From Clostridia bacterium (GTDB taxonomy: Bacteria > Bacillota > Clostridia > Oscillospirales > CAG-382), in NCBI GenBank assembly GCA_017397955.1, contig JAFQHL010000045.1, forward strand, positions 104,764-168,763: a stretch of DNA of 64,000 nucleotides, written 5' to 3'. The position numbers were made by a program, and so were the translations under genes. The notes under the pieces were generated by a model. It searched no databases, had not been told where the DNA came from, and saw only the letters and a program-made list of their open reading frames with translations. Below are positions 34,086-55,540 of this stretch, piece by piece; the stretch's first letter is position 1; every line of letters starts with the position of its first letter.

Positions 34086-35450
34086 TTATCTCTCATCACG
34101 ATCATCTTTCTTTTTCCTTCCTCTGATCCAACTCGGTGTAGGAACAGTTTGCTTATTAGGTTCTTGCTTTTCAATATTCGCAGGCTGTTCACCAAGCCGC
34201 TTGGCAACTGCATTTTTGCTTGCGCGGAAAAAGGCATCTTCGCAATAGCCGTAGATATCGGATATGCGCTTCTTCGCCGTTTCTTCTTTCTGCGGACGGA
34301 TGCCCATACGCTTCTCGTTTAGCTTTTCTTGGTCAAGGTCTGCCGCTTTTGCTTGCAGTGCGCGGTAGCTCTGCATCTGCTTCTGAATAGCGTTCTCGTC
34401 GGGATAGCCGTTGAGACGGTCATATTCAAGAGCAAGCATATTCACGCGCACTTCCTCCATTTCGTCGGCAATGCGGTCAACAATGGCAAATATGCTCTTG
34501 ACGAGATACTTGATAGCCTCCATAATATTCCGCAAGAAGCTGTTGTCCTTCCGTATCTGCCGGTTGATCTCACGGCGCTCGGATATAAAGCCCTTGCGTT
34601 CCATTGCGATGGCAATAACGCCTTCGTGAATGGTCGGTTGTTCGATCTGCCCCCGATCTTTATGACTTCGGTGGTCGATGCGCTCTTCAAGCTCACATCC
34701 CTCAAGCTCGCGGTTGACGTAACGCGCCCACATCTTTCTCCAATACAAAATCTGTTCTTCGCTGTTCCATTGCTCGGAGATAGGGTTCTGTCTGCCGTAC
34801 TTACTGCTCTTGGGATATTTGTTCACACGCTCCAAGCCTTCCGCTTTTGATGGCGGGAGGTATTCTTTTTTCTTGCCGATCTTGTAAAGGTATTGTTTCT
34901 CCCAACCGTCCTTTTGTGCTTGTAAAAACTCCGCCGCCGTAAAGCCACGCTCCTCTCCGTTACGAACACAGAGATATTCCTTTTCGGTCTTGTGCTGCCA
35001 AGTACCGTCCTTATTCAGCGGTCGCACCGTCAGCATAATATGCGCGTGAGGATTATGACCATCGGTATCGTGATAACAGACGTGAGCGCACATACCTTTG
35101 GCGACGCACTCCTTTTCAACGAAGTATTGTAGTAAGAACTCATTGGTTTCTTGTGACAACTCTTTCGGGAGGGCAACGATCAACTCCCGCGCCAAGCGGC
35201 TGTCCTTGGATTTCTCACTTGCTTCAACGGCGTTCCATAACACACTTCTGTCTGCCCATTCCTTTGGAGCGTTCTCGGGAAGGAATATCTGCTCCCACAC
35301 AAGACCTCGCTTTCGGGTGTAATCGTGGGTAATGCCGTCGTAATCGTTATAGATACGGGAACAGCTCATATAGGCGGCTGCCGCCACCGCAGAGCGTCCC
35401 GTACCTCTTGTGATGACTTTTGCTTCAAGATGGTATATGGCGATAGGCAA
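34086..35450 (-). CDS. MobA/MobL-family (MOBQ) relaxase
   Basis: MPIAIYHLEAKVITRGTGRSAVAAAAYMS (catalytic Tyr region) and HNPHAHIMLTVRP (HxH metal motif). Confidence 0.9.
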   Translation of the reverse strand: MPIAIYHLEAKVITRGTGRSAVAAAAYMSCSRIYNDYDGITHDYTRKRGLVWEQIFLPENAPKEWADRSVLWNAVEASEKSKDSRLARELIVALPKELSQETNEFLLQYFVEKECVAKGMCAHVCYHDTDGHNPHAHIMLTVRPLNKDGTWQHKTEKEYLCVRNGEERGFTAAEFLQAQKDGWEKQYLYKIGKKKEYLPPSKAEGLERVNKYPKSSKYGRQNPISEQWNSEEQILYWRKMWARYVNRELEGCELEERIDHRSHKDRGQIEQPTIHEGVIAIAMERKGFISERREINRQIRKDNSFLRNIMEAIKYLVKSIFAIVDRIADEMEEVRVNMLALEYDRLNGYPDENAIQKQMQSYRALQAKAADLDQEKLNEKRMGIRPQKEETAKKRISDIYGYCEDAFFRASKNAVAKRLGEQPANIEKQEPNKQTVPTPSWIRGRKKKDDRDER

Positions 35451-36256: not shown

Positions 36257-36583
36257 TCAAAAGGATTTCAAAAATCCCAAAAGGACTTGATCATCTACGT
36301 TTTCTTCCTCATCCATACTGGCAGGAGAGACGGGAGTGGCATACTGTAATGCCGAAAGTATTCTTTCAACAAAAGCATCCTCTTTCTCCCGTGTCTCAAA
36401 ATACGGATCGTTTTCAAGCCTTGCCTTGCGCTCATAAAAATCATTGACCGCCCGAGACACAAGCGCAGCGTATGAGCTGTATTTCGAACGGTCACGGTTT
36501 TGAAGATAATCGTAGGCTTTTCTTTCTTCCTCGTTGGCAAGATCAAAACGTAGGCAAAGCGGCTTTATATCTTGCTTTGCCAT
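36257..36583 (-). CDS. putative ParR-like partition adaptor
   Basis: The 108-aa gene is translationally coupled to parM-like (TGATG overlap), in the position of parR in parMRC loci. No motif-level support. Confidence 0.4.
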   Translation of the reverse strand: MAKQDIKPLCLRFDLANEEERKAYDYLQNRDRSKYSSYAALVSRAVNDFYERKARLENDPYFETREKEDAFVERILSALQYATPVSPASMDEEENVDDQVLLGFLKSF

Positions 36584-37521
36584 CAGAGCTTACCGCCGTT
36601 CTGCTTCATTTTCAGTTTGGTCAAGAACTCATATCCCTTTGCCGTGGCGCAAATATCATCCTTTATAACCACTCGATTGGGATCGTACTGACCGAAATTC
36701 TTTATCAGACAACCACCGCCGCCTACAACGTAGAGCTTCATAAGGTCGGGGTTATATTCGTGCTCTCGGAGCTTGCGGAAGATGCCCTCAACATATTCAA
36801 TGGCAACGCTGCGAATGACCATCAAATATTTCTCGGCAATATCAAGAGTGCCAAAGCGAAGGACACCCTCGATGATCGTATCATCGGGAACAGAACCAAA
36901 GCGGCGCATAAGCTGTTCGCGGATGTTCAGTACACATTGATGTGTGCCGTATTTCTCGGTAAACATCTTTTCGACTATCGGGCGGTGATCGTTGATATAC
37001 ATTACGTTCATTGTTCCGTTGCCGATGTCACAGATCATATTCACACCGCGAAACTCGCCCATTTGGTTGGTAACTGCCGCGAAGCCCTGCGGTAAAATAT
37101 CAGCACCTACGAAGTCCACGTGAAAAGTTCTTTTCTTAAAAACAAAATCCACGTGAGGCTCTCGGAGAAGATAAGCCTTGAACTCGTCCTTTTGCTCACT
37201 TACCCAAGTCAGAGGAAGTCCCGCAGCAAGATAGACCGACGCGCTCTCCAAGTTCCTTGCATAAAGCTCACGGGCAACAGCGGCAAGGGTGAGGATATAA
37301 TAGTCATCGTCGTTCTGCTTCTCGGGAATAAACTCCTTGTGTCCCTCCCCGATGATATAATACCGCCCGTTATAGACAAGCATATTGCTTGTAAAGGTCG
37401 GCTCGGTGTCATAGGCTTTCACGCTTGTGCGGAAACAAGCGGATGCAGTTTTGATGTTCCCATAGCCGTGGTCGATGCCGATCACGATGGGCGTCCCGGA
37501 TTGATTTTTGTTTACGTTCAT
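36583..37521 (-). CDS. ParM/StbA-family actin-like segregation ATPase
   Basis: Actin-fold motifs are present: IVIGIDHGYGNIKT (phosphate 1), MICDIGNGTMNV (phosphate 2), LYVVGGGG (adenosine). Confidence 0.8.
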   Translation of the reverse strand: MNVNKNQSGTPIVIGIDHGYGNIKTASACFRTSVKAYDTEPTFTSNMLVYNGRYYIIGEGHKEFIPEKQNDDDYYILTLAAVARELYARNLESASVYLAAGLPLTWVSEQKDEFKAYLLREPHVDFVFKKRTFHVDFVGADILPQGFAAVTNQMGEFRGVNMICDIGNGTMNVMYINDHRPIVEKMFTEKYGTHQCVLNIREQLMRRFGSVPDDTIIEGVLRFGTLDIAEKYLMVIRSVAIEYVEGIFRKLREHEYNPDLMKLYVVGGGGCLIKNFGQYDPNRVVIKDDICATAKGYEFLTKLKMKQNGGKL

Positions 37522-38585: not shown

Positions 38586-39548
38586 TTATCTTGCATCTTT
38601 ATCTTTATTTTCTCGCGTTTTCCACAATGCCATCGGATGCGCCTTTAGACGTTCTAATGCTTCTCCCTCAAAAATAATCTCGGGACAATACTGTCCTTTT
38701 TTGAAGTTCTCCAAGAAGGAGATATCTTTATCCGTAAGATAAAGGTTTTTATCGAGAAAAGCCTTAACAGCATCCTTAGCGGCATTCAGCTCAAAGGCAT
38801 CGCGATCACGAATCACGGGTTTTAGATCGGTCATAATCTTATGCGGTGTAATCGTTTCCATCGCCCGATAATCAATCTTGGTTATCGGGGTGTCTGTCGC
38901 CACAGCCAAGTAGAACACCACGCTTTGGCGATACAAGGCAAGTTCGTCCTCGGAAAAGAGATCGTGACTTACCATATAATTCATATCGTAAAGATCTCTC
39001 GCCGCGCCACGAGTGAGAAGCGCCACCGTCTTTGTGGCGTAAATCTCAATCGGAGATACAGTGTTGACATCAAAGCCTCCGTCTACAATATCGTTTGGCA
39101 TTTTGATCTTCTGTGTGGGCAGAACGTGGGAACGAAGCGAATAATTGATCTCGATCTTGATATTATCCTTCATTCCTCCGGCGTTGGTATATTCAAACAC
39201 ATAGGAATAAAGACTGTGATAGGTTTTGGATTTCGGGCTCAGCGTATAACCCGAAGCGGTCATATACTTTAAGAGCTTATCTCCTATGGTTGCTCTGAAG
39301 GACATCATTTCCGTTCTTCCTACGTTAGCGCAAAAATCAAGGTCGATATCAACGGACAGACGAGGAAGATTGAAGAACAATAGATTGATGGCAGTACCGC
39401 CCTTTAGAGCAAGTTTGTTTCTAAAAAGCTCACTGCTATCGAAAAATTTCAATATTTCGCAAAGTCGTAACACCTTTTCAAAGGTATCTCTTACGACCGA
39501 AAGTTCTTTTGCCTTACGCGCAAGCTCGGTTTTATCATATATCGGCAT
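38586..39548 (-). CDS. AbiEii/AbiGii-family nucleotidyltransferase toxin (DUF1814)
   Basis: 320 aa; LALKGGTAINL...SVDIDL is the N-terminal NTase pattern. Overlaps the upstream AbiEi-like gene by 14 nt. Confidence 0.8.
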   Translation of the reverse strand: MPIYDKTELARKAKELSVVRDTFEKVLRLCEILKFFDSSELFRNKLALKGGTAINLLFFNLPRLSVDIDLDFCANVGRTEMMSFRATIGDKLLKYMTASGYTLSPKSKTYHSLYSYVFEYTNAGGMKDNIKIEINYSLRSHVLPTQKIKMPNDIVDGGFDVNTVSPIEIYATKTVALLTRGAARDLYDMNYMVSHDLFSEDELALYRQSVVFYLAVATDTPITKIDYRAMETITPHKIMTDLKPVIRDRDAFELNAAKDAVKAFLDKNLYLTDKDISFLENFKKGQYCPEIIFEGEALERLKAHPMALWKTRENKDKDAR

Positions 39549-40302
39549 CTATATCACCTCCGGATAGGTTGTTCCATAAATTTTTAGGATAGGTTAAGCG
39601 CCATTTATTACTGAAATCCATATCCGCGCCCTGCATATCTTTGAGCAAATATCTTGAACTGTTTCCCGCGCGCACCTTACATATACGGAAGAATTCGTCT
39701 GATAGGTCAAAATTGTTACGGAAATGCTCAAATATAAAGCCAGCCTTCTGATAAAGAAAACACTTGCCATAGGCTTCAAGATAGGAAAGCATTTTGCTCT
39801 CGTTTAATATGGGGATTGCAGATATACACTGTATCAGTTCTTCAAAGCCCATATCCTTTTCAAAATCGTTGACAGAATCCAAAACCGTCCGTTCAAGATC
39901 TGTGATCCTCTCGCCGCGCGATGTGGTTTCTATACCTACACCAACGCTTGCAGGTACTCTCGTGAATACGTTACCTCCAAACTCAAAGGTATTGAACTTA
40001 CTCTCAGAGGACACGAATACACGATATGATACTTGATTGGCATAACCGTGATATTCAAACGCGGAATGATGAGATATAACGGCGGTTTCGGTTAACTTTG
40101 TGCCGATCAGATACTTGTTGGCAACGGGTTCTTTGTCAAGCGGATTGATTGCTGAATACAATCCCTTTCGTATCTGCACGACCGCGCCGTGCTTGGTATA
40201 ATACAATAGCATTGAAGCTGCCGTTACGTTATTACCCGTCAAAGCAACTGCTTCATCAAACGAAAAACAACCAAGTTGTAGCAATTTTTCCGTATATTTC
40301 AT
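39535..40302 (-). CDS. AbiEi-family antitoxin / transcriptional regulator (type IV TA)
   Basis: N-terminal wHTH-like region and a C-terminal AbiEi_4-like domain; paired with AbiEii. The start is set at MKYTEKLL after AAGGAGGA. Confidence 0.75.
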   Translation of the reverse strand: MKYTEKLLQLGCFSFDEAVALTGNNVTAASMLLYYTKHGAVVQIRKGLYSAINPLDKEPVANKYLIGTKLTETAVISHHSAFEYHGYANQVSYRVFVSSESKFNTFEFGGNVFTRVPASVGVGIETTSRGERITDLERTVLDSVNDFEKDMGFEELIQCISAIPILNESKMLSYLEAYGKCFLYQKAGFIFEHFRNNFDLSDEFFRICKVRAGNSSRYLLKDMQGADMDFSNKWRLTYPKNLWNNLSGGDIDADI

Positions 40303-40334
40303 AAAAAACATCCTCCTTTCGATTCATTGTTTAT

Positions 40335-40496: not shown

Positions 40497-42389
40497 TTAA
40501 GCGCTCGGTACTTGTCTGACCTCAAAGGGCAGCGTCGGGGGATTATCCTTCATATCCTCCGCGAAGCTCTCGATGATATCCGCTTGGGTTTGAGCAAACT
40601 GTGCGGCTTTCTTCGCCTTTTCCTCCGCGCGTATTCTCTTACGACGGGCAAGCTCCTTGTCTCTGCGTTTGCGGTACAGTTCCTTCCAATACCGATCCTT
40701 CTCCATCTGCTCCAATTCCTCGGGTGTAGGTTCGGGCGCGGGAATACTGATATTGCCGACAAAGTTCAAATAGATCTCGACCTCTTGGATACGCTCTCCT
40801 GTGGAACGGTCGGGGGCGTGAACTACGATCTTGTCGATAAACTCGTTTATCATCGGCTTTGTAAGCTCGGAGAAGTCTGTGTACTTGGCGGCAAGAGACA
40901 GAAAAGCGTCGATGTTAACGCTGTCTTTCTCAAACTGTTCTACCGCATTTTCCGCTTCGGATATGGATATTTTGAGTTCCTTCTGCTCCTGCTCATAGCC
41001 GCTTGAGAGCATATCGAACTTTTCCTCGGATATTTTACCGACAGCGTAGGATTCGTAAAGACGTTTATAGAGAACGTCCAATTCCTCATAGCGCCGCTTG
41101 TCCTTGTTCAGCTTACGCTTTAATTCCTTTGCGGTGTTGTCTTGCTGTACCGCCGACGCTTCACGAACACGGGCAATAAAGTCATCCTTGTTGGCAATGG
41201 CGTATTGGCTGACCGTTCTGACGGTAAATAATACGATCTCTCTTAAAGAATTGGTACTGATATGATGTGCAAAGCATCCCTTGCCCTTATTCTTCTTGGA
41301 TAACTTATAAGTTGAGCAATTATACGCATCCGTTCCCGAATGCTTCGTTCCAATCGAATCCGTAAAAGGACGCGAGCGTTGGTTATACATCTTCTCACCG
41401 CAATCGGCGCAATAGACAAGTCCCGTAAATGGATTGGATTCTTCAATCGTATCACAGCGTCGGGGCGTTCCCAAGAGCTTTTGGCACAACTGCCAAGTTT
41501 CAAGGTCAATGATGGGTTCTTGAGTCCCTTCAAATACTGCCCACTTTTCGGGTGGGTTCTGAATACTTTTCTTATCCTTGTAGGATTTGCTTGTGGTACG
41601 GAAGTTGACAGTATATCCAAGATAGTCGGGCTTGGTCAGTATATGCTTGACCATCGTGCCACTCCACTTATATGGGTCTAACACATCAAGGCGATTCTTA
41701 TATACACCATTACTCCGCTTGGCTTGATAATAGCCGGGTGTTTCGATCTTATCCGCTTGCAGTTGCTTGGCGATCATCTGTATGCCTTTGCCCTCAATGC
41801 AAAGCCGATAGATGCGTCTGACGACCTCTGCCGCTTCTTCATCCACAAGCCAATGATGCTTGTCCTCGGGGTCTTTCTTGTACCCATAGGGCGCGTGAGA
41901 GGAAATATGCTTTCCCGAATTGCCGATGACCTGCTTGGTGGCTCTGATCTTGCGGCTGCAATCTCGCAAGTACCATTCATTCATCACGTTCAAAAAAGGT
42001 GCGAACTCGCTACTTCCTTGATTATCACTATCCACTCCGTTGGCAATGGCGATAAAGTGGATGTCCTTCTGCCCGAAATAGATCTCGGTGTAATAACCGA
42101 CTTCAAGGTAATTACGACCGATACGGCTCATATCCTTCGTGATGACCATACCGACCTTACCTGCTTCAATGTCCTCGATCAGACGTTTCCAATCGGGTCT
42201 GTCGAAGCTGCCGCCGCTGTAACCGTCATCGGTGTAGTGGACGATATTGGTGTAGCCGTTCTGTTCGCAATAGGTTTCGAGCATTTTCTTTTGATTCACG
42301 ATGGAATTGCTATCGCCAAGCTGCTCGTCGTCTCTCGATAGTCTTTCATAAAGGGCAGTAATCAATCCGTCAATCTGCTTGTTGTTCAT
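40497..42389 (-). CDS. large serine recombinase (TnpX-like)
   Basis: N-terminal resolvase domain (ALYERLSRDDEQ...SNSIVNQKKML...GYSGGSFDRPDW...VITKDMSRIGRN), recombinase domain, Cys-rich zinc ribbon (CADCGEKMY...YNCSTY), and a long coiled-coil tail; 630 aa. Confidence 0.92.
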   Translation of the reverse strand: MNNKQIDGLITALYERLSRDDEQLGDSNSIVNQKKMLETYCEQNGYTNIVHYTDDGYSGGSFDRPDWKRLIEDIEAGKVGMVITKDMSRIGRNYLEVGYYTEIYFGQKDIHFIAIANGVDSDNQGSSEFAPFLNVMNEWYLRDCSRKIRATKQVIGNSGKHISSHAPYGYKKDPEDKHHWLVDEEAAEVVRRIYRLCIEGKGIQMIAKQLQADKIETPGYYQAKRSNGVYKNRLDVLDPYKWSGTMVKHILTKPDYLGYTVNFRTTSKSYKDKKSIQNPPEKWAVFEGTQEPIIDLETWQLCQKLLGTPRRCDTIEESNPFTGLVYCADCGEKMYNQRSRPFTDSIGTKHSGTDAYNCSTYKLSKKNKGKGCFAHHISTNSLREIVLFTVRTVSQYAIANKDDFIARVREASAVQQDNTAKELKRKLNKDKRRYEELDVLYKRLYESYAVGKISEEKFDMLSSGYEQEQKELKISISEAENAVEQFEKDSVNIDAFLSLAAKYTDFSELTKPMINEFIDKIVVHAPDRSTGERIQEVEIYLNFVGNISIPAPEPTPEELEQMEKDRYWKELYRKRRDKELARRKRIRAEEKAKKAAQFAQTQADIIESFAEDMKDNPPTLPFEVRQVPSA

Positions 42390-44840: not shown

Positions 44841-45479
44841 TTATTTTTCTTCCTTCCTGTTCGGTATAAATTTGTTCCAATTCGTATTGGTAATGCCGAG
44901 GTTTTCAAGCTCCACGGCAACCTCTACGATAGACTTTTTTCCCAAGTCCTTGATGCCCATGATCTCGTCCTCGGTAAGTTCAACAATGTCCTTTACCGTC
45001 TCATATCCTTTGGCGATAAGGCGGTTTATCGGTCTTACTGAAATATTCAATTCACTGATTCGACGCTGATACTTATCTTCACTGTAACGCTCTTCCTTTT
45101 CCAGCGCTATTTCTTTACATCTTTCCTCGTAGGTATGCTTACCGTACTTTATGTATCCAATCAACGGGGGATGATGAAGTTTAGAGATAGATCTATGCTC
45201 TAAGGTGCGGATGCGTTCTCCCGTAACGTCAAACTCTTTTGCGATAGCAGTATAGGTCATTTTCCGTGCGTAACGCATTTCGATAACTTTCTGATCGCGC
45301 GGCGGCAACGTAGAGAGCGCATATTCAAGTCCGGCAACCATATCCTCGGTTATATTATCCACGGGAATCTGTACGTTGAACCATTTATCTGTTGCAAGCG
45401 TTAAAAACAGATTGCGTGGGTATGGCTCCTTGTATGCTGCTTTAAGTATATTTTTTGTTTCATTATCCAATGCTTTCAT
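44841..45479 (-). CDS. sigma-70 region-4-like HTH protein with RpoA-CTD-like helix-hairpin-helix tail
   Basis: LPPRDQKVIEMRYARKMTYTAIAKEFDVTGERIRTLEHRSISKL (region 4 HTH), then LNISVRPINRLIAKGYETVKDIVELTEDEIMGIKDLGKKS (alpha-CTD-like). Confidence 0.7.
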   Translation of the reverse strand: MKALDNETKNILKAAYKEPYPRNLFLTLATDKWFNVQIPVDNITEDMVAGLEYALSTLPPRDQKVIEMRYARKMTYTAIAKEFDVTGERIRTLEHRSISKLHHPPLIGYIKYGKHTYEERCKEIALEKEERYSEDKYQRRISELNISVRPINRLIAKGYETVKDIVELTEDEIMGIKDLGKKSIVEVAVELENLGITNTNWNKFIPNRKEEK

Positions 45480-45982: not shown

Positions 45983-46008
45983 TATGTGGATAAGCTATTC
46001 AATTTCGT

Positions 46009-46338: not shown

Positions 46339-46354
46339 AGTTTCACCTCCAATT

Positions 46355-46555: not shown

Positions 46556-46586
46556 CGGCGGTGGAAAATGTGTTATTCTCCACCGC
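46556..46586 (-). terminator. terminator hairpin after 46603-47016
   Basis: GGCGGTGGA-N13-TCCACCGCC. The stem sequence is related to the 44296-44330 terminator. Confidence 0.6.
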
Positions 46587-46602
46587 CGCAGCGTTATTGG
46601 CT

Positions 46603-47016
46603 TTATTCAGTTGTATCGTCACCGATAGCCGCCAAAGTGTTTGCGATCAATGTCTCGGTAGAAACGCCGTATTTAACCGCATTTTCATAAGAGCCGTCCA
46701 TCGTAACGATAGAAACCTTAGACTCATCAAGTGCATCCGCAACCGCGTTAAGCTCCGAAGGAGTACCAACCACTCTGTTGGAGGATGCCATTACGATGGT
46801 CTTAGTATCTGTGTTCTTTGCGTACTCAATGGCTTTTTTTAACGCATCGAGGCTTTCCGCACGGCTACCAATTGTGCTGACGGTCTCGCTGACGTCATAG
46901 CCTTGCTGCTTGCAATAGCTTTGAACCTTTTGCACTTGTCTCTCCAAGCACTCTGCCGCGCCGTCGTGATTGCTTTCTCTTACGTAAACAACCACTTGTT
47001 TATTTTCAGAAGTCAT
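46603..47016 (-). CDS. resolvase-N-terminal-domain-only protein (TnpY-like)
   Basis: VVVYVRESNHDG...LERQVQKVQSYCKQQGYDV resembles a serine-recombinase catalytic domain, but there is no DNA-binding domain; 137 aa. Confidence 0.5.
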   Translation of the reverse strand: MTSENKQVVVYVRESNHDGAAECLERQVQKVQSYCKQQGYDVSETVSTIGSRAESLDALKKAIEYAKNTDTKTIVMASSNRVVGTPSELNAVADALDESKVSIVTMDGSYENAVKYGVSTETLIANTLAAIGDDTTE

Positions 47017-47102
47017 AAGACAGCTCCTTTCTCATTGATAAATCGAACGTATTTATTATACCATAAAAATTTGAAAAAATCCAGTTCTTTATCACATTTT
47101 TA

Positions 47103-47384
47103 TTACGAATATATTTGAAACGTATAAACGCTATTCTTTGTCGTGAAGATCAGATAATCTTCGCGGTATTCATACGTTCCGCAGCTTGTTTGAAGATAGC
47201 GTCCGTCTCGGCTTTCGATATACATAAATTTCTCGCCGGGGTGTTTGTGTTCGCTTTCAAACATTCCAAGTATACCTTCCATTCCGACGTATCTCATTCG
47301 CCAAGACCATTCGTTTTCCTCAGCCTCGGTGATGGGAATGATCTCTATGAGCTTGGCGATATATGCGTTTACCTTTTTAGCCAT
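47103..47384 (-). CDS. hypothetical protein
   Basis: 93-aa ORF within the co-oriented element operon. Confidence 0.45.
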   Translation of the reverse strand: MAKKVNAYIAKLIEIIPITEAEENEWSWRMRYVGMEGILGMFESEHKHPGEKFMYIESRDGRYLQTSCGTYEYREDYLIFTTKNSVYTFQIYS

Positions 47385-47396
47385 AGCTTGTCCTCC

Positions 47397-47678
47397 TTAA
47401 AGCGTATCACGATGTTCACCGCTCAACACTTCAAGCATAATCCGAGCGCCGAGCCTAAAGGCGTACGTAAATATCTCTCGCTCGTTGATCTCGGACAGCT
47501 CTGACCAACAATCGTCAAACCTTTGCAGAATGTCCTTCTGCTTTTCGTCAAGGGTTGCGGATAGGTTGTCGTGATGGGTGGCAATGTAGCCGATAAGCTC
47601 CTTTGTTTCCTTCGTGGCGATTCTGCAATCGCTGTTCGGAGAGATATTGCCGTACCATAATTCGTTCAGTACCGTCAT
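47397..47678 (-). CDS. DUF6809-like small protein
   Basis: LNELWYGNISPNSD...FDDCWSELSEINEREIFTYAFRLGARIMLEV is a pattern seen next to TnpV in clostridial elements (from memory). Confidence 0.5.
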   Translation of the reverse strand: MTVLNELWYGNISPNSDCRIATKETKELIGYIATHHDNLSATLDEKQKDILQRFDDCWSELSEINEREIFTYAFRLGARIMLEVLSGEHRDTL

Positions 47679-48025
47679 CTGTAGATCACCTCCCGCAGCA
47701 CAAACTCCTTGGCGCAGGCGCGGACGTTATTCATTTCTTGCACCCAGCGCATTTGATCTGTAGCCTTGAGTTCCTCGGTGATGCCATTCTTTTTGACAAG
47801 TCCCGCAACGATTGATTCCATCTGTGCAACCGCTTGCTCATCAATGCTGTGAAGGTGCTCGTTGAGCCTACCTTCTGCTAAAAGGGTGGTGTAAGTCCCG
47901 CGTCGGTGGTTTTTGAGAAACGCGAGATGCAGGTTGCCGTACTTGCCGATCTTATAGTCGGTCTGTTCGGGCAGTTCAAGCTCGGGGTAAAACTGATCCC
48001 CGATTTGTTTGTAGCGCAGTTCCAT
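47675..48025 (-). CDS. TnpV-like transposon-encoded protein
   Basis: MELRYKQIGDQFYPELELPEQ...IGKYGNLHLAFLKNHRRGTYTTLL..GRLNEHL..IDEQA...KATDQMRWVQEMNNVRACAKEFVLREVIY matches the TnpV family pattern. Confidence 0.8.
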   Translation of the reverse strand: MELRYKQIGDQFYPELELPEQTDYKIGKYGNLHLAFLKNHRRGTYTTLLAEGRLNEHLHSIDEQAVAQMESIVAGLVKKNGITEELKATDQMRWVQEMNNVRACAKEFVLREVIYR

Positions 48026-48556: not shown

Positions 48557-48590
48557 AAAAAATTTCGCCCGCTGTGCGGGCGAAATTTTT
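48557..48590. terminator. bidirectional terminator
   Basis: AAAAAATTTCGCCCGC-TGT-GCGGGCGAAATTTTT between convergent genes. Confidence 0.8.
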
Positions 48591-50889
48591 ACGCTTTTGT
48601 TTTTTCAAGGTCCTTCTTGCGAATTTCCACACGCCTTACCTTGCCGCTGATGGTCTTGGGCAGCTCTTCCACAAACTCCACAATTCTGGGGTATTTGTAG
48701 GGCGCGGTGTGGGTCTTTACATATTCCTGAATTTCCTTCTTCAAGGCATCCGTGCCGACGGTATTCTTGGTAAGCACTATGGTCGCCTTTACAATCTGTC
48801 CGCGTACTTCATCGGGTACGGGGGTGATTGCACATTCCAACACATAAGGAAGCTCCATAATAACGCTTTCAATTTCAAAGGGCCCGATGCGATAGCCGCT
48901 GGACTTGATAACATCGTCGATACGACCCACATACCACAGATATCCGTCTTCGTCCATGGTTGCCTGGTCGCCTGTGTGGTAGAATCCGTCGTGCCATACT
49001 TCGTTTGTTTTTTCTTCATCAAGATAATAGCCAATGAACAATCCGCAGGGTGCGCCGTCCTTGGTGCGGATACAAATCTCGCCCGCATCACCGGTCTTAC
49101 ATTCGTTGCCGTCGGGGTCAAGAATTACCACATCGTACAAAGGACTTGCTTTACCCATAGAGCCAATCTTGGGTGTAGAGCCCACAAAGTTTGCGATGGA
49201 GAGCGTTGTTTCCGTTTGTCCAAAGCCTTCCATAATGGTAAGCCCAGTTGCCTTCTTAAACTGGTTGAACACTTCGGGGTTAAGCGCCTCACCTGCTGTG
49301 GTAGCGTACTGAATAGAGGAGAGGTCGTACTTAGAGAGGTCTTCCTTGATGAAGAATCTATACATCGTGGGCGGTGCACAGAATGTGGTAATACCGTACT
49401 TTTTAAAGAGGGGAAGAATATCGTCGGGATGGAACCTGTCAAAGTCGTAGGTGAAAACACCTGCTTCGCAGAGCCACTGACCGTAGAGCTTGCCCCAAAG
49501 TGCCTTACCCCAGCCTGTATCGGAGATAGTGAAGTGCAAGCCGTCACGCTTAACATTGTGCCAATGCTTGGCGGTGGGGTAGTGACCCAACGCATATTTG
49601 TAGGAATGGGTTGCAATACGGGGGTAACCCGTAGTACCCGATGTAAACAGCATAAGCATGGGGTCGTTACCGCAGGGGGTATCTTCCTTGCGGTAGAAAT
49701 GGGTACTGAAACGCTCCATTTCCACATTAAAGTCGTTCCAGCCGTCTTTTTTGCCGCCCACAAGAATCTTTATCATTTCGGGGAACTCTGCTGCCGCTTT
49801 TTCTGCTTCTTCCGATACAGTGCCGTCTGCTGTACAAACAATGGCCTTTACCTTGGCGGCTTTATACCTATAGGTAAAATCGTGCTCGACAAGCTGGTTA
49901 GTAGCGGGGATGGCAATAGCGCCAATCTTGTGCAGTGCAAGCATACAGAACCAGAACTGATAATGACGCTTGAGCACCAGCATAACCGTATCACCGCGCT
50001 TTATACCAAGGGATTCAAAGTAGTTTGCGGTCTTAGCGGAGTACTTCTTCATATCGCTGAAAGTGAATCTACGCTCGGTTTTATCACCTGCAACCCACAT
50101 CATAGCAAGCTTGTCGGGGGTCTTTTCCGCAATAGCATCAACGCAGTCAAAGGCAAAGTTGAATTTATCCTCGTTTTTGAAGCTTATGCCGTTGAATACG
50201 CCCTGTTCGTCGTAGGTGGATGTAATAAAGTTGTCGGCAACGGTTTTAACCTCGGTTTCTTCCTTAACAGCCTTTGCGGCGATAAAGGGCGCTTCGGGAT
50301 AAGTCTCGCTGTAATCCCCGTCCTGAGGATTAAGTACCACTGCGTGGAACTCACAGCCGCCCTCGCTTACGGCAATCATACCATGAGGGATAATACTGTT
50401 GTAAAAAATAGAGTCGCCTTCGTTAAGTACGCTTATGTGGTTGCCAACCTGTACTTTAAGGGAGCCTTTTACGATAACATCAAATTCTTGTCCGTTGTGG
50501 GAATTAAGCTTAATGGCTTTGTTTTGCTCTTCTTCCATGTAAGGCATTTTAACCAAAAAAGGCTCTGCCAATTTATCCTTGAATTTAGGTGCAAGGTTGT
50601 AATAAACCCCTGCCTGCTTTTTAATTATCTCAAGTCCTTCGCCTTTTCTCGTAATGGCAAAGGAGGTAAGTGTGGTACTTGTACCTTCTATAATATCAAC
50701 AACCTCGACATTACATGCCTTGGCACATTTGTAAATGAATGTAAAGCTAAAATCGGTTTCGCCCTGTTCAAGGAGTTTGTAGTCCTCAACAGATACGCCC
50801 GTAAGCTTTGCCAGCTCTTCTTGGGAATACCCCTTAGCTTCACGCAGGTCTTTAATTCTACCTGCAACATCTTTCAAATTGAACTCCAT
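48589..50889 (-). CDS. tripartite fusion: XRE-type HTH + cupin + AMP-forming acyl-adenylate/acyl-CoA ligase
   Basis: Residues 1-65 form an HTH_3 (IKDLREAKGYSQEELAKLTGVSVEDYKLLEQG). Residues ~110-190 form a cupin (GQEFDVIVKGSLKVQVG...GDSIFYNSIIPHG). The rest is an ANL-superfamily ligase (LMLFTSGTTGYPRIA, GYYHTGD, SSGYRIGPFEIE, PKTISGKVRR). Confidence 0.85.
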   Translation of the reverse strand: MEFNLKDVAGRIKDLREAKGYSQEELAKLTGVSVEDYKLLEQGETDFSFTFIYKCAKACNVEVVDIIEGTSTTLTSFAITRKGEGLEIIKKQAGVYYNLAPKFKDKLAEPFLVKMPYMEEEQNKAIKLNSHNGQEFDVIVKGSLKVQVGNHISVLNEGDSIFYNSIIPHGMIAVSEGGCEFHAVVLNPQDGDYSETYPEAPFIAAKAVKEETEVKTVADNFITSTYDEQGVFNGISFKNEDKFNFAFDCVDAIAEKTPDKLAMMWVAGDKTERRFTFSDMKKYSAKTANYFESLGIKRGDTVMLVLKRHYQFWFCMLALHKIGAIAIPATNQLVEHDFTYRYKAAKVKAIVCTADGTVSEEAEKAAAEFPEMIKILVGGKKDGWNDFNVEMERFSTHFYRKEDTPCGNDPMLMLFTSGTTGYPRIATHSYKYALGHYPTAKHWHNVKRDGLHFTISDTGWGKALWGKLYGQWLCEAGVFTYDFDRFHPDDILPLFKKYGITTFCAPPTMYRFFIKEDLSKYDLSSIQYATTAGEALNPEVFNQFKKATGLTIMEGFGQTETTLSIANFVGSTPKIGSMGKASPLYDVVILDPDGNECKTGDAGEICIRTKDGAPCGLFIGYYLDEEKTNEVWHDGFYHTGDQATMDEDGYLWYVGRIDDVIKSSGYRIGPFEIESVIMELPYVLECAITPVPDEVRGQIVKATIVLTKNTVGTDALKKEIQEYVKTHTAPYKYPRIVEFVEELPKTISGKVRRVEIRKKDLEKTKA

Positions 50890-50947
50890 AGTTTTTTGCT
50901 CCTTTCGTTTCCGCTTGCTTCGTTATGAAGCATAAATTTTCGGATTT

Positions 50948-51290
50948 GAATAAAACAAAACAGACCCATCTCAAATATACTTTGAGACGGGTGCAATTAT
51001 ACATATAAAATCACACTCGCGGTACCACTCAAATTGCGGACAAATAATCCGCCACTTTGCAGGCTCTAACAAGCCCTTGCTTTAACGCAGCATTACGGAA
51101 GAAGCCTACTGACCGCTTGGGTGTTCAGCCCTCCAACTCGGAAGTGATGGGTCATTGGAAAACTCTGCCATTGGCTCGCAGCAACCGCCAACTCTCTTAA
51201 GGCTCGGTAATCCGACCGTCTTCGTCATAGTTGTTTGTGATATTCAAATTTCTTGTTATGCATTATACTCGCGCAAAAACTGTTTGTCAA
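50948..51290 (-). promoter_or_regulatory. promoter plus T-box leader (tRNA-sensing riboswitch); specifier unresolved (Pro/Thr/His registers)
   Basis: All on the minus strand. Promoter: TTGACA (51290-51285), 17 nt, TATAAT (51267-51262). Stem I has GA-motif, AGAGAG and GCTGCGAG elements; an F-box-like GCGTTA is present. The T-box sequence AATTTGAGTGGTACCGCG lies at 51035-51018. The terminator ACCCGTCTCAAA/TTTGAGATGGGT (50992-50964) is followed by a U-tract. Confidence 0.85.
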
Positions 51291-51321: not shown

Positions 51322-53781
51322 TTATTTCTTAAGCCCCAAAATTTCGGCAGAGTCATCACGCATTTTGTATTTAAGAATCTTGCCCGCCGCATTCATGGGG
51401 AACTCGTCCACAAACAGGAAATAACGGGGAACCTTGTGGCGTGCTATGTAAGCGTTGCCAAACTCTTTCATCTCCGCTTCCGTTGCAGTCTCTCCCTTGT
51501 GCAATATTATCCATGCACAGCATTCCTCCCCGTACTTTTCGTCGGGAACGCCAACCACCTGTACATCGCGCACCTTGGGGTTGGTAAGATAAAACTCTTC
51601 TATCTCGCGAGGGTACAGATTTTCACCGCCGCGGATAATCATATCTTTAAGACGCCCCGTTACCTTGTAGTATCCGTCGGGTGTGCGACAACATATATCG
51701 CCGCTGTGCAACCAGCCGTCCGCATCTATAGCCTGTGCGGTAGCCTCCGGCATCTTATAGTAACCCTTCATAATATTAAAGCCGCGGGCTACAAATTCGC
51801 CACTCTCGCCGTCGGGTAACTCTTCTCCTGTTTCAGGGTCGATAACCTTACACTCCACACCGGGGAAAGGACTGCCTACGGTTTCCACACGGTGGTCAAG
51901 GTCTTCGTTAACCTCACCCATGGTACAGCCTGGGGACGCTTCTGTCTGCCCGTAAACGGAGATAATCTCTCGCATATTCATTTCGTCTGCGGCGCGGCGC
52001 ATAAGGTCGGCAGGGCAGTTTGCACCTGCCATAATGCCCGTACGCATATAGGAAAAATCCGTCTTTGCAAAATCGGGGTGGTTAAACATGGCAATAAACA
52101 TAGTAGGTACGCCGTTAAAGCAGGTTATATGCTCGTCATTAACGCAAGCCAAGGACGACTTAGGTGAAAAATAGGGGATAGGGCAAAGTGTGCCGCCGTG
52201 TGTCATCATGGAGGTCATGGAAAGCACCATGCCAAAGCAGTGGAACATTGGCACCTGTATCATCATACGGTCGGCAGTGGAAAGGTCCATCCTGTCGCCT
52301 ATGGTCTTGCCGTTGTTTACAATATTGCGGTGGGTGAGCATAACCCCTTTGGGGAAACCTGTTGTGCCGGAGGTGTACTGCATATTACAAACGTCGTCGG
52401 GTTTAACAAGGGATGCGCGCCTGCGTACCTCCTCCACAGGAACAAGGGAGGAGCGGGAAAGCATTTGTTCCCAAGTAAGACAGCCTTCCATGGAAAAACC
52501 TACGGTAACAACGTTACGCAGGAAGGGTAAAGCCTTAGAGTAAAGGGGCTTACCGGGTGTAAGACTTTCAAGCTCCGGACAAAGCTGCTTAATAATCTCC
52601 TTATAGTTGATGTCCTTGCAGTACTCAATCATCACAAGTGTATGAGTGTCTGACTGCTTTAACAAATACTCTATCTCGTGTATCTTATAAGCAGTGTTAA
52701 CAGTTACCAGAACAGCACCGATTTTAGTGGTTGCCCAGAAAGTAATAAACCATTCGGGCACGTTGGTTGCCCATACCGCCACATGGTCGCCCGCCTTCAC
52801 GCCCAAGGAAATAAGGGCGGCGGCACATTCGTCAACATCGCGGCGGAACTGCTTATAGGTTCTGGTATAGTCAAGGGTAGGGTACTTAAAGGCGTACTGG
52901 TCCGGGTAGGTTTCAGCCATAGTGTCAAGTACGTCACCAAAAGTAGCATCAATAACGTCGTATTTCTTCCACACAAAGGTGCCAGTTTTTGCCCTGTTGT
53001 AATAAGCGCGGTCGTAATTCTTCTTTTTGCGGCCAAGGGATGAAACGTAGTTTGCAAAATGGGTAAGCACTATATCCGCATCGTTTATTTCCTCGTTCCA
53101 AGCGGCACAAATAAAGCCGTCAAAATTAAGGGAGGAGAGGGCATTGATAAGCTTTTCTACGGGCAGTTCGCCTTCGCCTATAAGTACTGTCTTCCCGTCC
53201 TTCATATCGCCCAACCGTACATACTTGATATACGCACCCAGCGTTTTAATGGTGGTTTCAGCCGTCTCTCCTTCGCCGAAATATGTGCCTCTCACATTCC
53301 ATGAAGCACCTATTACCGCAGATGAGAAGAAGTTTATAATATCTATAACATTTTCCGTATTTGCCAAGTAGCCTACAGTCTCAAAGAGGATACCCACATC
53401 AGCGGATTCAGCACGCTTTATGGCCTTGCTCAGCTTTTCCTTCAGCAATTCGTAGGGCGCTTCCTCCTCTATACGAACGATGATGTTTTCAATTCCTGCG
53501 CTTGCCGCCATATCCACATATTTAAGTACTGCATCGGCAGTTGCATCCTCGCTGTCCAAGGGATGAGGATAGCTCAATGCGGAAACAGCAAGCCCGCGGT
53601 TTACAAGCTTTCTTTTGGAGTCCGCCGTACGGTCGCGGCGCAGAATACTGTCGTGGTGGGTGCTGCGCTCGTTTATTGCATCGTAAATCTCAAAGCCCGC
53701 AAATCCGTAGTCATAAGCATAACGGCAAAGCTCTATAAAGGAGGGACGATTTACGTACTTTGTAGAAAAAACAATTTTCAT
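51322..53781 (-). CDS. fusion: xylose-isomerase-like TIM-barrel domain + AMP-forming fatty-acyl-CoA ligase
   Basis: The N-terminal ~260 aa look like a sugar-phosphate isomerase/epimerase-type TIM barrel (FAGFEIYD..., ILFETVG..., VRLGD). The C-terminal ~550 aa form an ANL ligase (MQYTSGTTGFPKGVMLTH, GWLHSGD, IRGGENLYPREIE, PMNAAGKILK). The start is set at MKIVFS (53781), 1 nt after the upstream stop and preceded by GAGGAGGAG. Confidence 0.85.
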   Translation of the reverse strand: MKIVFSTKYVNRPSFIELCRYAYDYGFAGFEIYDAINERSTHHDSILRRDRTADSKRKLVNRGLAVSALSYPHPLDSEDATADAVLKYVDMAASAGIENIIVRIEEEAPYELLKEKLSKAIKRAESADVGILFETVGYLANTENVIDIINFFSSAVIGASWNVRGTYFGEGETAETTIKTLGAYIKYVRLGDMKDGKTVLIGEGELPVEKLINALSSLNFDGFICAAWNEEINDADIVLTHFANYVSSLGRKKKNYDRAYYNRAKTGTFVWKKYDVIDATFGDVLDTMAETYPDQYAFKYPTLDYTRTYKQFRRDVDECAAALISLGVKAGDHVAVWATNVPEWFITFWATTKIGAVLVTVNTAYKIHEIEYLLKQSDTHTLVMIEYCKDINYKEIIKQLCPELESLTPGKPLYSKALPFLRNVVTVGFSMEGCLTWEQMLSRSSLVPVEEVRRRASLVKPDDVCNMQYTSGTTGFPKGVMLTHRNIVNNGKTIGDRMDLSTADRMMIQVPMFHCFGMVLSMTSMMTHGGTLCPIPYFSPKSSLACVNDEHITCFNGVPTMFIAMFNHPDFAKTDFSYMRTGIMAGANCPADLMRRAADEMNMREIISVYGQTEASPGCTMGEVNEDLDHRVETVGSPFPGVECKVIDPETGEELPDGESGEFVARGFNIMKGYYKMPEATAQAIDADGWLHSGDICCRTPDGYYKVTGRLKDMIIRGGENLYPREIEEFYLTNPKVRDVQVVGVPDEKYGEECCAWIILHKGETATEAEMKEFGNAYIARHKVPRYFLFVDEFPMNAAGKILKYKMRDDSAEILGLKK

Positions 53782-53782
53782 A

Positions 53783-55171
53783 TTACTCCTCCTCAAACAC
53801 AATCTTGTTCAGGGCGTTGATATATGCTCTTATACTTGCCGCAACAATATCTGCTGAAATACCGTTGCCTGAATAAAGCTTGCCGTTGTTTCTGAGCCTT
53901 ACCAAAGCAGAGCCCAAAGCCTCTTTGCCTTCGGTTACGGATTGCACCTGAAAATCGTCCAGCTCATAGTGATAACCTATGCACTGCTCAATGGCACGGA
54001 AGGCAGAGTCAATAGGACCGTCCCCTGTGCTTACACCGCAAATAATGTCGTCGTTGAATCTTAGTGTTACCTGTGACATAGAGCTTGTAAGGTTACTGCT
54101 GTTTGTGGTGTAGCTTTCAAGGTGATAGGTAGAGGGCGCCTGCATAGCGGCGCTTGCAATAAGCGCGTCAAGCTCCTTTGCGCCTACGGCATCCTTCTTT
54201 TGACATACCTGTATAAGCGCCTTGTGCACTTTGCCGCAATCGGCCTCGGAAAGGTCGTAACCCAAAACACTTGCCGCCTGCGCTACTTGTGCAATGGTAC
54301 TGTCACAGTCAAGCAAAATCTTTTTCTTTTCGCTTACGGTGCTTTCGCTTTCGTAAACCTCGTGGTTTATTTTTGCAAGCATATCGTCAATACTAGCATG
54401 TATTTTTGTATTATTAAGCCCTGTTCCTATACCCAGTCGGTCAGAACAAACTTTAAGGGCATCTGCAATCTCACCCGTCAAAAGAGCATCGCCGCCCGCC
54501 ATAGAGCATTTAACACCGTCTGCGCCGTTGGCAACAGCGGCTATTGCAGAAGCTACCGCCATATTTATCTTATCGGAAACCTGCACGTATACGGGCACGT
54601 TTACAGCCGCTTTTACCGCTTGGGTCAGCGCGACAATCTCTTCTGGCAGAGATATTCCTGCATCATCACACAGTGTAATAAGGGTTGCGCCGTTAGCTAC
54701 CGCTTCTTTGGCTGCATTAACTACAAAGTCTGCTTCTGCGCGTGTAGCATCAAGGGCAGAAAACTCAACGTCCTCAGTAAGCCCTTTTGCAGCCTTTACA
54801 AGCTCTGCAATCTTTGCCAACATTTTGTCCGCCTTAATGTGGTAATTGTACTCCATTTGAACGGTAGAAACAGGAAGCTCTATCTGTAAACGGGGGCTTT
54901 TTGCCGATTTAATGCACTCCCATGCATCAACTACAGAGGCAACCGTAGAGCCTACGGGGATGGCAACCGTGGCGTTTTGCACATTCTGCGCTACAGTTTT
55001 ATATACAATGGAATCCTCACGCAGACTCTTAATGGGTGCAAGCTCCACGCTGTCGGCGCCGATAAGGTCGGCACAAACGGCAATAGCGGTTTTTTCGCGG
55101 AAAAGCAGGGCAACCTGGCGGTCTGCGGAAAGCTTTTTAAGTGTAATGTCGGATACATTGATTTTTCTCAT
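53783..55171 (-). CDS. LeuA/HMGL-like protein with degenerate catalytic motifs and retained LeuA C-terminal regulatory (dimerisation) domain
   Basis: Colinear by eye with 2-isopropylmalate synthase, but DTTLRDGEQ is replaced by SDITLKKLSADRQ and HxHNDxGxAxAN by VQVSDKINMAVAS. The C-terminal TGDGPIDSAFRAIE...VTEGKEALG...GISADIVAASIRAYINALNK resembles the LeuA_dimer domain. Confidence 0.65.
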   Translation of the reverse strand: MRKINVSDITLKKLSADRQVALLFREKTAIAVCADLIGADSVELAPIKSLREDSIVYKTVAQNVQNATVAIPVGSTVASVVDAWECIKSAKSPRLQIELPVSTVQMEYNYHIKADKMLAKIAELVKAAKGLTEDVEFSALDATRAEADFVVNAAKEAVANGATLITLCDDAGISLPEEIVALTQAVKAAVNVPVYVQVSDKINMAVASAIAAVANGADGVKCSMAGGDALLTGEIADALKVCSDRLGIGTGLNNTKIHASIDDMLAKINHEVYESESTVSEKKKILLDCDSTIAQVAQAASVLGYDLSEADCGKVHKALIQVCQKKDAVGAKELDALIASAAMQAPSTYHLESYTTNSSNLTSSMSQVTLRFNDDIICGVSTGDGPIDSAFRAIEQCIGYHYELDDFQVQSVTEGKEALGSALVRLRNNGKLYSGNGISADIVAASIRAYINALNKIVFEEE

Positions 55172-55214: not shown

Positions 55215-55540
55215 CAACAAAAAAACGTCCCCGTCCCCTTGTCGAATCAAAGAGACGAAAACGTTAAACACAATTTAACTTTCCGCGGTACCACTCTTCT
55301 TCATCCAGTAAAGGATGCACTCAGATGCCAACACATCTTTACTCTGTAACGGGAGCTACCCGTCTGTCATTACACCTAAAACAGGTTCACAACAGCCGCT
55401 CCGCGGTGAGTTCAGCAAGCTTTTCCCAATGTCTCACACCGACCGACATCTCTCTCAAGGCGAAAACACCTGCGTACTATTCCGCATCACTGCGTTTACT
55501 AATTGCTTGGAATTTTATCACAAGAAAATTTCTTTGTCAA
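55215..55540 (-). promoter_or_regulatory. promoter plus T-box leader, specifier CUC (leucine)
   Basis: All on the minus strand. Promoter: TTGACA (55540-55535), 17 nt, TAAAAT (55517-55512). Stem I has GATGCGGAAT-AGTA, AGAGAG and GGTGTGAG. The specifier loop is GAA-CTC-A (55413-55407), and CCGTTA is the F-box. The T-box sequence GAGTGGTACCGCGG lies around 55284-55297. A terminator (55265-55224) is followed by a U-tract. Confidence 0.88.

Follow-up and report, generated by a model that had tools for sequence, protein, structure and literature searches.

The window analyzed here is a 64,000-nucleotide stretch of DNA from a Clostridia bacterium (contig JAFQHL010000045.1, positions 104,764 to 168,763). 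Between positions 53783 and 55171 it encodes a 462-residue protein with the architecture of 2-isopropylmalate synthase (IPMS, the product of leuA). Judged by its sequence, this LeuA-like protein is very probably a catalytically dead LeuA paralog, belonging to a family in which the residues that define the synthase are missing and the strongest conservation lies in the regulatory domain. Its gene directly precedes one for a TIM barrel fused to an AMP-forming acyl-coenzyme A (CoA) ligase, and the pair lies behind a T-box leader with a leucine specifier codon. We consider it an even call whether the protein is a pseudoenzyme that senses leucine and regulates or scaffolds an isovalerate-type CoA ligase in a reductive-carboxylation route to leucine, a reading in which we infer the complex, the ligand, the inhibition and the substrate.

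Catalytic site and conservation of the LeuA-like family

The gene and the parts of its product map to the window as follows.

53783..55171, reverse strand: coding sequence of the putative LeuA-like pseudoenzyme; ATG start, 462 aa
54392..55171, reverse strand: degenerate HMGL-like (DRE-TIM) barrel, aa 1-260; R→K12, D→K13, H→Q197 and H→S199, with the GERAGN loop shortened
54137..54361, reverse strand: low-confidence linker in place of subdomain I (aa 271-282) and helical subdomain II (aa ~283-345), from the AlphaFold2 model and alignment
53786..54136, reverse strand: regulatory domain, with G383-D-G385-P386-x-D388 and G437-x-S439-x-D441 invariant or nearly so; from the Pfam LeuA_dimer match (107 bits), conservation and AlphaFold2 secondary structure

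The protein is an exact match to a database entry (P0001) labeled 'hypothetical protein' from a Clostridia bacterium metagenome-assembled genome (MAG). Pfam places HMGL-like (PF00682) on residues 5-257 (99.1 bits, E = 3.6e-28) and LeuA_dimer (PF08502) on residues 331-457 (profile positions 4-130 of 131; 107.1 bits, E = 8e-31), scores that put its homology to LeuA far above chance. The NCBIfam LeuA equivalog models, by contrast, all score less than half their cut-offs, the best being NF002086 (241.6 bits versus a cut-off of 532), with TIGR00973 at 224 versus 598.7. Bacterial LeuA models reach 224-242 bits versus 52 for citramalate synthase, and the citramalate and homocitrate synthase models span 52-70 bits; by these profile scores, the protein is a descendant of bacterial LeuA and not of citramalate synthase (CimA). 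In the AlphaFold2 model, which has a mean predicted local distance difference test score (pLDDT) of 89.1, the barrel shows the (beta/alpha)8 pattern at pLDDT >90. Foldseek aligns this model with the LeuA barrel 3ewb (root-mean-square deviation 1.8 Å, TM 0.91) and also with full-length M. tuberculosis LeuA (1sr9, 3fig). The colinearity with LeuA that the preliminary description had proposed from a by-eye comparison is thus borne out by profile and by predicted fold.

HMMER alignment with N. meningitidis IPMS (3rmj) sets DITLKKLSA of the LeuA-like protein against DTTLRDGEQ of the synthase, and QVSDKINMAVAS opposite HCHNDLGLAVAN. Both the Arg of LRDGEQ, which binds the 2-oxoacid, and its Asp, a metal ligand, are absent where the protein reads LKKLSA, and the HxH metal ligands of HxHNDxG are missing where it reads QVSDK. 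The losses recur when 66 family members are aligned by MAFFT with E. coli LeuA and two canonical representatives. That alignment also reveals that the GERAGN loop is shortened and that a segment of ~30 aa belonging to subdomain I (IVGxxAFAHxSGIHQDG...YEIMxPE) is deleted from the family, leaving 26-33 residues in a region for which E. coli LeuA has 60. In true LeuAs, subdomain I, which carries the AFxHxSGIHQDG segment, reaches over and caps the active site of the partner subunit; in our model it is replaced by a 12-residue linker (residues 271-282) with pLDDT <50.

The former catalytic positions are hypervariable throughout the family. Position 12 can be K, R, C, A or Q, among others, position 13 E, K, N, S, Q or D, and position 197 Q, E, C, S or K, whereas position 199 is mostly S. 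No His occurs at 197 or 199 in the 66 aligned family sequences or in 71 independent metagenomic sequences, and therefore no substitute active site has been fixed there. For M. tuberculosis IPMS, R80A and R80K are entered as activity-destroying in a table of PMC10464499 that cites Casey et al. 2014, and the LeuA-like protein has Lys at the equivalent position. The Glu of EFSxEDA (EFSALDA in the LeuA-like protein) was considered as a further catalytic loss and rejected; canonical LeuAs also vary there.

The preliminary description had called the enzyme apparently dead. The alignments to 3rmj and E. coli LeuA agree that the catalytic Arg, Asp and both His are gone, and the altered GERAGN loop and missing subdomain I add to the case. 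From sequence, the protein is predicted to be negative for condensing acetyl-CoA with 2-oxoisovalerate. It should not be filed as an isopropylmalate synthase, because four defining catalytic features are missing and the curated score thresholds are failed.

The same losses extend across a broad family. An exhaustive HMMER search over 1.84 billion representatives returns 261 representative proteins with E<1e-30. Some 105 full-length LeuA-like clusters (50% identity; 453-497 aa) align end to end at 29-51% identity, and canonical LeuAs (503-516 aa) turn up only below 200 bits. LRDGEQ, HxH and the GERAGN loop are absent from every full-length member found. The hosts are uncultured Acutalibacteraceae, Christensenellaceae, Oscillospiraceae and other Clostridia, together with two Spirochaetales, mostly from the guts of ruminants and other animals.

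Conservation within this family runs opposite to that of the true synthases. Mean pairwise identity is 33% in the barrel, 39% in subdomain II and 58% in the regulatory domain, the reverse of canonical LeuAs compared with each other (45-52% in the barrel, 32-41% in the regulatory domain); by this measure, constraint has shifted from the barrel to the regulatory domain. The latter holds six of the ten invariant residues (G383, G385, G437, D441, A453 and N455), and its P386, D388, G420, G435, S439 and T440 are >90% conserved. In the secondary structure of the AlphaFold2 model, G383, G385, G437 and D441 sit in loops just before the two helices of beta-beta-beta-alpha units. To judge from these comparisons, the LeuA-like family is large, old and under purifying selection.

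A different altered LeuA was seen at another locus. P0264 (L090:6001-7536) is a full-length LeuA that keeps subdomain I (HCS_D2) and reads LCDGEQ and RAYND, so that the Arg and both His are replaced. Proteins of this type (511 aa; R→C, HxH→RxY) were considered as intermediates and rejected, as they lie beside an aconitase (leuC-like) gene and their retained subdomain I marks a separate lineage. By its motifs, P0264 may represent another partly degenerate or metal-independent LeuA lineage.

Ligase partner and transcriptional control

Directly downstream of the LeuA-like gene lies the gene for the ligase fusion.

51322..53781, reverse strand: TIM barrel-ligase fusion gene; 819 aa
52957..53781, reverse strand: AP_endonuc_2 (divergent xylose-isomerase-like) TIM barrel, aa 1-275 of the fusion; Pfam 51 bits
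51322..52956, reverse strand: AMP-forming acyl-CoA ligase, aa 276-819 of the fusion; Pfam AMP-binding 322.7 bits plus AMP-binding_C, NCBIfam PRK12583 671 bits
53781..53794, reverse strand: putative translational-coupling junction, GAGGAGGAG-TAA-t-ATG, in which the last three Glu codons are usable as a Shine-Dalgarno sequence

The fusion ATG begins 1 nt after the LeuA-like stop codon, an arrangement that indicates translational coupling of the two genes in the window. The ligase half retains the ANL core motifs intact (TSGTTGFPKG, YGQTE, SGD, GRLKD..RGGENLYP and the Lys of a terminal AAGK), and its PRK12583 score of 671 bits falls under the cut-off of 832. The fold family of the N-terminal half is known from the Pfam match alone: NCBIfam yields only 13 bits, to hydroxypyruvate isomerase, and a search against PDB sequences gives no match. 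This TIM barrel reads ET...WNVRG...YVRLGD...AAW in the window clade, whereas a distant one (L085) keeps an E...D-x-H-H...H-x-H-x-x-D...E pattern that is presumably reminiscent of the metal site of this fold. On this motif comparison, the barrel of the window clade appears catalytically degenerate, its metal-ligand pattern lost. D-x-H-H and H-V-H-x-x-D motifs were seen in three distant members (L085:7458-8288, L087:2010-2834 and L089:2963-3787).

The association of the two genes holds in both directions. Starting from the LeuA-like protein, the fusion gene lies within a few bases 3' in 83 of 83 loci from other genomes and in 5 of 5 distant representatives at 29-41% identity, giving 88/88 overall. 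In the reverse test, a metagenome scan seeded with the TIM domain alone produced 80 loci, 74 of them with enough upstream sequence, and the LeuA-like gene is directly upstream in 73 of these. The 74th (L160) was considered as a locus without the gene, an idea rejected when the gene was found ~620 nt further upstream. The pairing with a ligase fusion claimed in the preliminary description therefore extends to 88/88 and 74/74 loci, down to 29% identity, in addition to the coupled junction of the window itself. From this synteny, we regard it as likely that the LeuA-like protein functions with the ligase fusion.

The members of the pair diverge at different rates. Across loci, the ligase keeps 66-96% identity to the window copy, the TIM domain 31-82% and the LeuA-like protein 41-80%. 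The ligase domain is 94-100% identical in its best 120 homologs (P0271-P0390), and the LeuA-like protein only 74-82% identical in its own best 120. Such unusual conservation of the ligase may reflect several interaction surfaces or a recent horizontal spread.

Upstream of the LeuA-like gene, the window carries the elements of a tRNA-responsive leader.

55512..55540, reverse strand: sigma-70-type promoter, TTGACA-17-TAAAAT with TG extension; 11/12 consensus matches, just upstream of the T-box
55248..55499, reverse strand: T-box leader of the LeuA-like operon; Rfam RF00230, 125 bits versus a gathering threshold of 93
55408..55410, reverse strand: specifier codon CUC (Leu), followed by A; GAA-CUC-A aligned to the specifier columns of the model
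55224..55265, reverse strand: intrinsic T-box terminator competing with the antiterminator; 18-pair stem, then a T run

Specifiers in relatives were identified with a loose sequence pattern, manual reading and Rfam checks. The T-box core motif occurs in 75 of 84 genome loci with enough upstream sequence, and the specifier is CUC in ~70 of them, probably CUG in three and CCC in one. The metagenome set contributes 35 more T-boxes with CUC or CUG, and Rfam recovers further T-boxes missed by the pattern. With a Leu specifier in at least 70 relatives, as well as the strong RF00230 match and CUC codon of the window, the leucine T-box that the preliminary description had named as one layer of control stands. 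In every verified case, T-box specifiers agree with what the downstream gene does (PMC2494555), and because of this correspondence the LeuA-like operon is, on sequence grounds, switched on by leucine starvation. The single CCC case, upstream of position 2903 in L033, reads GAA-CCC-A (Pro) and may reflect a mistake in the assembly or a genuine change of specifier.

Five loci (L024, L031, L034, L039 and L094) have, in place of the T-box, a short leader open reading frame (ORF) in which Leu and Ile codons abound, as in MNMSAFHAANILLLIAIIILAIIKQ, with a terminator behind it. By its layout this is a classical attenuator that would carry the same message as the T-box, and two different RNA mechanisms are, on this reading of the leaders, recruited for the same operon. 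Short Leu/Ile/Val-rich leader ORFs (MNMSAFHAANILLLIAIIILAIIKQ...; MKKTLMTSSAVILIGVVILGLLVGGF) with a terminator after them were noted upstream of position 6001 in L024, L031, L034 and L039, in L094 and at L087:380-460.

Proposed leucine sensing, pathway context and competing explanations

The C-terminal domain contains GDGPID..., TEGKEALG and SADIVAASIRAYINALNK motifs and is the best-conserved region of the family. In M. tuberculosis IPMS, leucine occupies a hydrophobic pocket at the dimer interface of the regulatory domain, with its carboxylate between two helix N-termini (PMC11057210). By position and motif, we take the two regulatory-domain helices of the AlphaFold2 model to be the counterparts of these leucine-carboxylate helices. 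The E. coli LeuA G462D mutant is feedback-resistant (PMC12967937). G462 aligns with G420 of the LeuA-like protein, and Gly is kept in 65/66 and 71/71 sequences. A PF08502 domain can also be used alone as an amino-acid biosensor (PMC13381585). A phmmer search with the C-terminal 178 aa alone against PDB sequences found no match.

Retention of the feedback domain, as the preliminary description had it, is therefore well founded: LeuA_dimer scores 107 bits, and the GxGPxD and GxSTD helix N-termini and the G462 equivalent are invariant or nearly so. From these motifs, the regulatory domain looks ligand-competent. We infer that leucine is its ligand because of its LeuA rather than CimA ancestry and because of the Leu T-box, and the case for leucine feedback through the protein is evenly poised.

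In the mechanism we propose, a true 2-isopropylmalate synthase ancestor would have lost the Claisen condensation and kept its dimeric, leucine-binding regulatory domain together with the domains that carry it. The LeuA-like dimer would bind the ligase fusion as a regulatory or scaffold subunit, possibly docking on the dead TIM barrel of the fusion in place of the LeuA catalytic barrel, which the regulatory and accessory domains normally contact. The ligase would form the CoA ester of isovalerate, or of a closely related branched short-chain acid. Reductive carboxylation of this ester by a 2-oxoacid:ferredoxin oxidoreductase would yield 2-oxoisocaproate, which a branched-chain aminotransferase would turn into leucine, completing the 'isovalerate carboxylation' route. 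Control would be exerted at two levels, as the preliminary description had proposed. Uncharged tRNA-Leu would turn transcription on through the CUC T-box, and leucine bound to the retained LeuA regulatory domain would turn the ligase off.

Gene order in relatives fits such a route. A Christensenellaceae MAG (L068) carries, one after another, genes for an MbcS-like ligase, a ParA/NUBPL-like P-loop protein, POR_N/PFOR_II and TPP_enzyme_C (POR alpha and beta), POR gamma and a class IV aminotransferase (Aminotran_4), then the Leu T-box and the LeuA-like and TIM-ligase genes. In L089 the order is POR gamma, Aminotran_4, LeuA-like and TIM-ligase, and L037, L054, L063, L137 and L153 are similar. In L024/L031/L034/L039 and L094, an aminotransferase gene comes immediately after the ligase gene, without the oxidoreductase. 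Passages of PMC7356843 citing Allison et al. 1962-1971 describe classical labeling work on rumen bacteria, which make Leu, Ile and Val from isovalerate, 2-methylbutyrate and isobutyrate by carboxylation and amination. A ligase, a 2-oxoacid:ferredoxin oxidoreductase and an aminotransferase are the steps expected for that carboxylation route. With this gene context in mind, we lean slightly toward an isovalerate-type substrate for the fusion ligase. ParA/NUBPL-like P-loop proteins of the iron-sulfur cluster carrier type were noted beside oxidoreductase or aminotransferase genes at L068:1087-1743 and L034:10939-11628; by family, they may be maturation factors for the ferredoxin oxidoreductase.

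A second ligase gene follows the cassette in the window, with its own leader.

48589..50889, reverse strand: XRE-type helix-turn-helix (HTH_3), Cupin_2 and AMP-forming ligase, MbcS-related, 766 aa; NF047394 (MbcS) 450 bits, cut-off 850
51262..51290, reverse strand: promoter of the second ligase gene; 12/12 consensus matches
50980..51237, reverse strand: second T-box leader; RF00230 92.7 bits (0.3 below the gathering threshold of 93), E = 5.5e-21, missed by the default scan
51146..51148, reverse strand: specifier AUC (Ile) of the second T-box, from sequence

An Ile T-box also precedes the orthologous HTH-cupin ligase gene in L070 and L074, and such a ligase lies within the 4-6 kb flanks of 37/88 LeuA-like-seeded loci. 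The MbcS of S. aureus helps to build branched-chain fatty acids, with branched carboxylic acids as the precursors (PMC10026030, PMC11167679). From its T-box and domains, the HTH-cupin ligase is possibly the 2-methylbutyrate-to-isoleucine counterpart of the LeuA-like pair, with a built-in sensor domain. L074 keeps the Ile T-box on this downstream gene even though its LeuA-like gene is without a T-box.

Taken as a whole, the picture is tentative and, in our estimate, falls somewhat short of even: a salvaged LeuA allosteric module would gate the entry enzyme of a path from isovalerate through isovaleryl-CoA and 2-oxoisocaproate to leucine, a second dead TIM barrel may be the docking surface, and the Ile-T-box ligase may be a parallel solution leading from 2-methylbutyrate to isoleucine.

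Several observations weigh against a leucine sensor acting on an isovalerate-type ligase. PF08502 domains can be isoleucine-specific, as in CimA, and another branched-chain compound could be the ligand. Some clades (L074, L078 and the L105 group) are without a T-box and have a MarR-like gene upstream instead. The best 120 homologs found with the ligase domain are unnamed 819-aa fusions, called only 'AMP-binding protein', with no characterized close homolog among them. No ferredoxin oxidoreductase or aminotransferase gene lies near the cassette in the window. Finally, gene adjacency would also fit an assembly factor that senses nothing. As regards the MarR-like gene, it was seen to end just upstream of the LeuA-like gene in a clade at ~50-55% identity (L074, L105, L106, L111 and L118).

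The last of these points leads to the alternative that survives best, one we nevertheless judge unlikely: the LeuA-like dimer would be a pure scaffold or assembly subunit that joins or stabilizes two ligase fusions without sensing a ligand, its regulatory domain being a dimerization or docking surface. PF08502 does double as the dimerization domain of LeuA, adjacency to the fusion is obligate, and the accessory barrels evolve faster than the ligase, all of which a scaffold would accommodate. However, the Gly-rich loops before the two regulatory-domain helices are the most invariant part, the leucine carboxylate of M. tuberculosis IPMS lies between two helix N-termini (PMC11057210), and the G462-equivalent feedback residue is conserved. 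A docking surface alone would not be expected to keep exactly these ligand-site motifs over 30-50% divergence.

Rather less likely again is a sensor for a ligand other than leucine (isoleucine, valine, 2-oxoisocaproate, isovalerate or CoA), or one of opposite sign that activates or gates the ligase. The Ile specificity of the CimA PF08502 domain (PMC13381585) makes such a switch conceivable, as do crystals of M. tuberculosis LeuA with bound ketoisocaproate (going by the title of 3hps) and the leader peptides that replace the T-box, which are rich in Leu and Ile codons alike. Yet the protein is far closer to bacterial LeuA than to CimA, nearly all loci have a Leu codon as T-box specifier, and the Ile T-box sits on a separate ligase.

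It is improbable that the protein is still an enzyme, its barrel performing a metal-independent step on the acyl-adenylate or acyl-CoA, alone or with the AP_endonuc_2 barrel. The barrel fold is predicted with confidence, a few barrel residues are invariant (F24, E107 and K113; D8, D141, R144 and D169), and distant partner TIM barrels keep an E-D-H-H-like pattern. However, most of the conserved barrel residues also occur in canonical LeuA and look structural, the old active-site lining is hypervariable, subdomain I, which caps the active site, is deleted, and conservation within the protein is lowest in the barrel. That the gene is a decaying pseudogene or an annotation artifact of a true leuA, as the lost catalytic residues and the NCBI label 'hypothetical protein' might suggest, is effectively refuted by conservation, given an intact reading frame of constant length in several hundred divergent lineages, a strongly conserved C-terminal half, and conserved synteny and regulation.

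Other features of the window and relation to known systems

Away from the cassette, Pfam searches of 20 larger ORFs elsewhere in the window revealed no further branched-chain amino acid genes. The region from ~30000 to 48000 looks like an integrated mobile element, with a low-GC (35%) stretch at 30-34 kb and the following genes.

34086..35450: MobA/MobL relaxase
36583..37521: actin-like ParM-type protein
38586..40311: AbiEii/AbiEi toxin-antitoxin pair
40497..42389: large serine recombinase
44841..45479: sigma-70 region 4 / alpha-CTD protein

A 784-aa ORF on the forward strand (48574..50928) runs antisense to the whole HTH-cupin-ligase gene, has no family support and is, by these features, almost certainly a non-coding shadow ORF. 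An Rfam match to the Gut-1 sRNA (79 bits) was noted in sequence flanking a related locus (L072:11267-11343).

If our proposal is correct, there are several implications. First, the cassette would give the 60-year-old isovalerate carboxylation route of gut and rumen Clostridia its first identified activation enzyme and feedback device, and with them the genes and control logic for converting branched-chain volatile fatty acids to amino acids. Such acids are required by many fiber-degrading bacteria of the gut and rumen, a dependence exploited in animal nutrition. Second, the LeuA-like family would offer a clear example of pseudoenzyme evolution in which a feedback domain survives the loss of its own enzyme's activity and finds new use on a different enzyme with the same end product, and its natural stand-alone PF08502 module would be a candidate leucine biosensor. 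A widespread dead LeuA that keeps only the feedback module would surprise specialists, and the genetics and control of isovalerate-to-leucine conversion become directly testable. Finally, the hundreds of MAG proteins with LeuA domains and no active site risk being misread as signs of an intact isopropylmalate pathway, with leucine prototrophy mis-predicted in metabolic models as a result.

Databases name the two proteins merely 'hypothetical protein' and 'AMP-binding protein'. Our literature searches found no prior IPMS-derived pseudoenzyme, LeuA-like/TIM-ligase pair or acyl-CoA ligase controlled by a Leu T-box. The LeuA-like protein shares with bacterial LeuA/IPMS (E. coli LeuA, 3rmj and 1sr9/3fig) the same order of HMGL-like barrel, subdomain II and PF08502, and it keeps the GxGPxD motif and the G462 equivalent of the feedback site. 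Unlike LeuA, it has no LRDGEQ Arg or Asp, no HxH and no subdomain I, its GERAGN loop is shortened, it scores below half the equivalog cut-offs and its conservation is inverted. Moreover, in the loci examined its gene is never beside leuBCD and always beside the TIM-ligase fusion.

For the ligases, the nearest comparison is S. aureus MbcS, as these too would be AMP-forming ligases for branched short-chain acids, and MbcS is the closest NCBIfam match of the 766-aa neighbor. MbcS, however, feeds branched-chain fatty-acid synthesis and is without the HTH-cupin, TIM-barrel and LeuA-like parts, and the ligase encoded beside the pseudoenzyme falls in a different ANL subgroup (PRK12583-like). The system as a whole has parallels with rumen isovalerate carboxylation, as described in passages of PMC7356843, in its occurrence in animal-gut Clostridia, its control by leucine starvation and the linkage to oxidoreductase and aminotransferase genes in relatives. 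For the rumen route, no genes or regulators assigned to the activation step, and no pseudoenzyme component, were found in the searchable literature.

With regard to regulation, the proposed module resembles IlvH/IlvN of acetohydroxyacid synthase and the PF08502 domain of CimA, which are branched-chain amino acid sensing modules that control an enzyme of a branched-chain pathway. IlvH, in contrast, is an ACT-type subunit, and CimA carries its PF08502 domain on an active catalytic barrel, whereas here the domain sits on a dead barrel that is paired with an unrelated ligase. HisZ provides a further parallel. It is an inactive paralog of HisRS that serves as the histidine-sensing regulatory subunit of the short-form ATP phosphoribosyltransferase HisG, and both this complex and its allostery are experimentally established. 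By the analogy we propose, the LeuA-like protein would likewise be a dead paralog of an enzyme of the same amino acid that acts as the end-product-sensing subunit of another enzyme. It differs from HisZ in that its fold and partner are unrelated and that its complex and allostery are, for now, those of our model. Within these bounds, we propose HisZ as the nearest functional precedent for the LeuA-like pseudoenzyme, with IlvH-type subunits following a similar logic.

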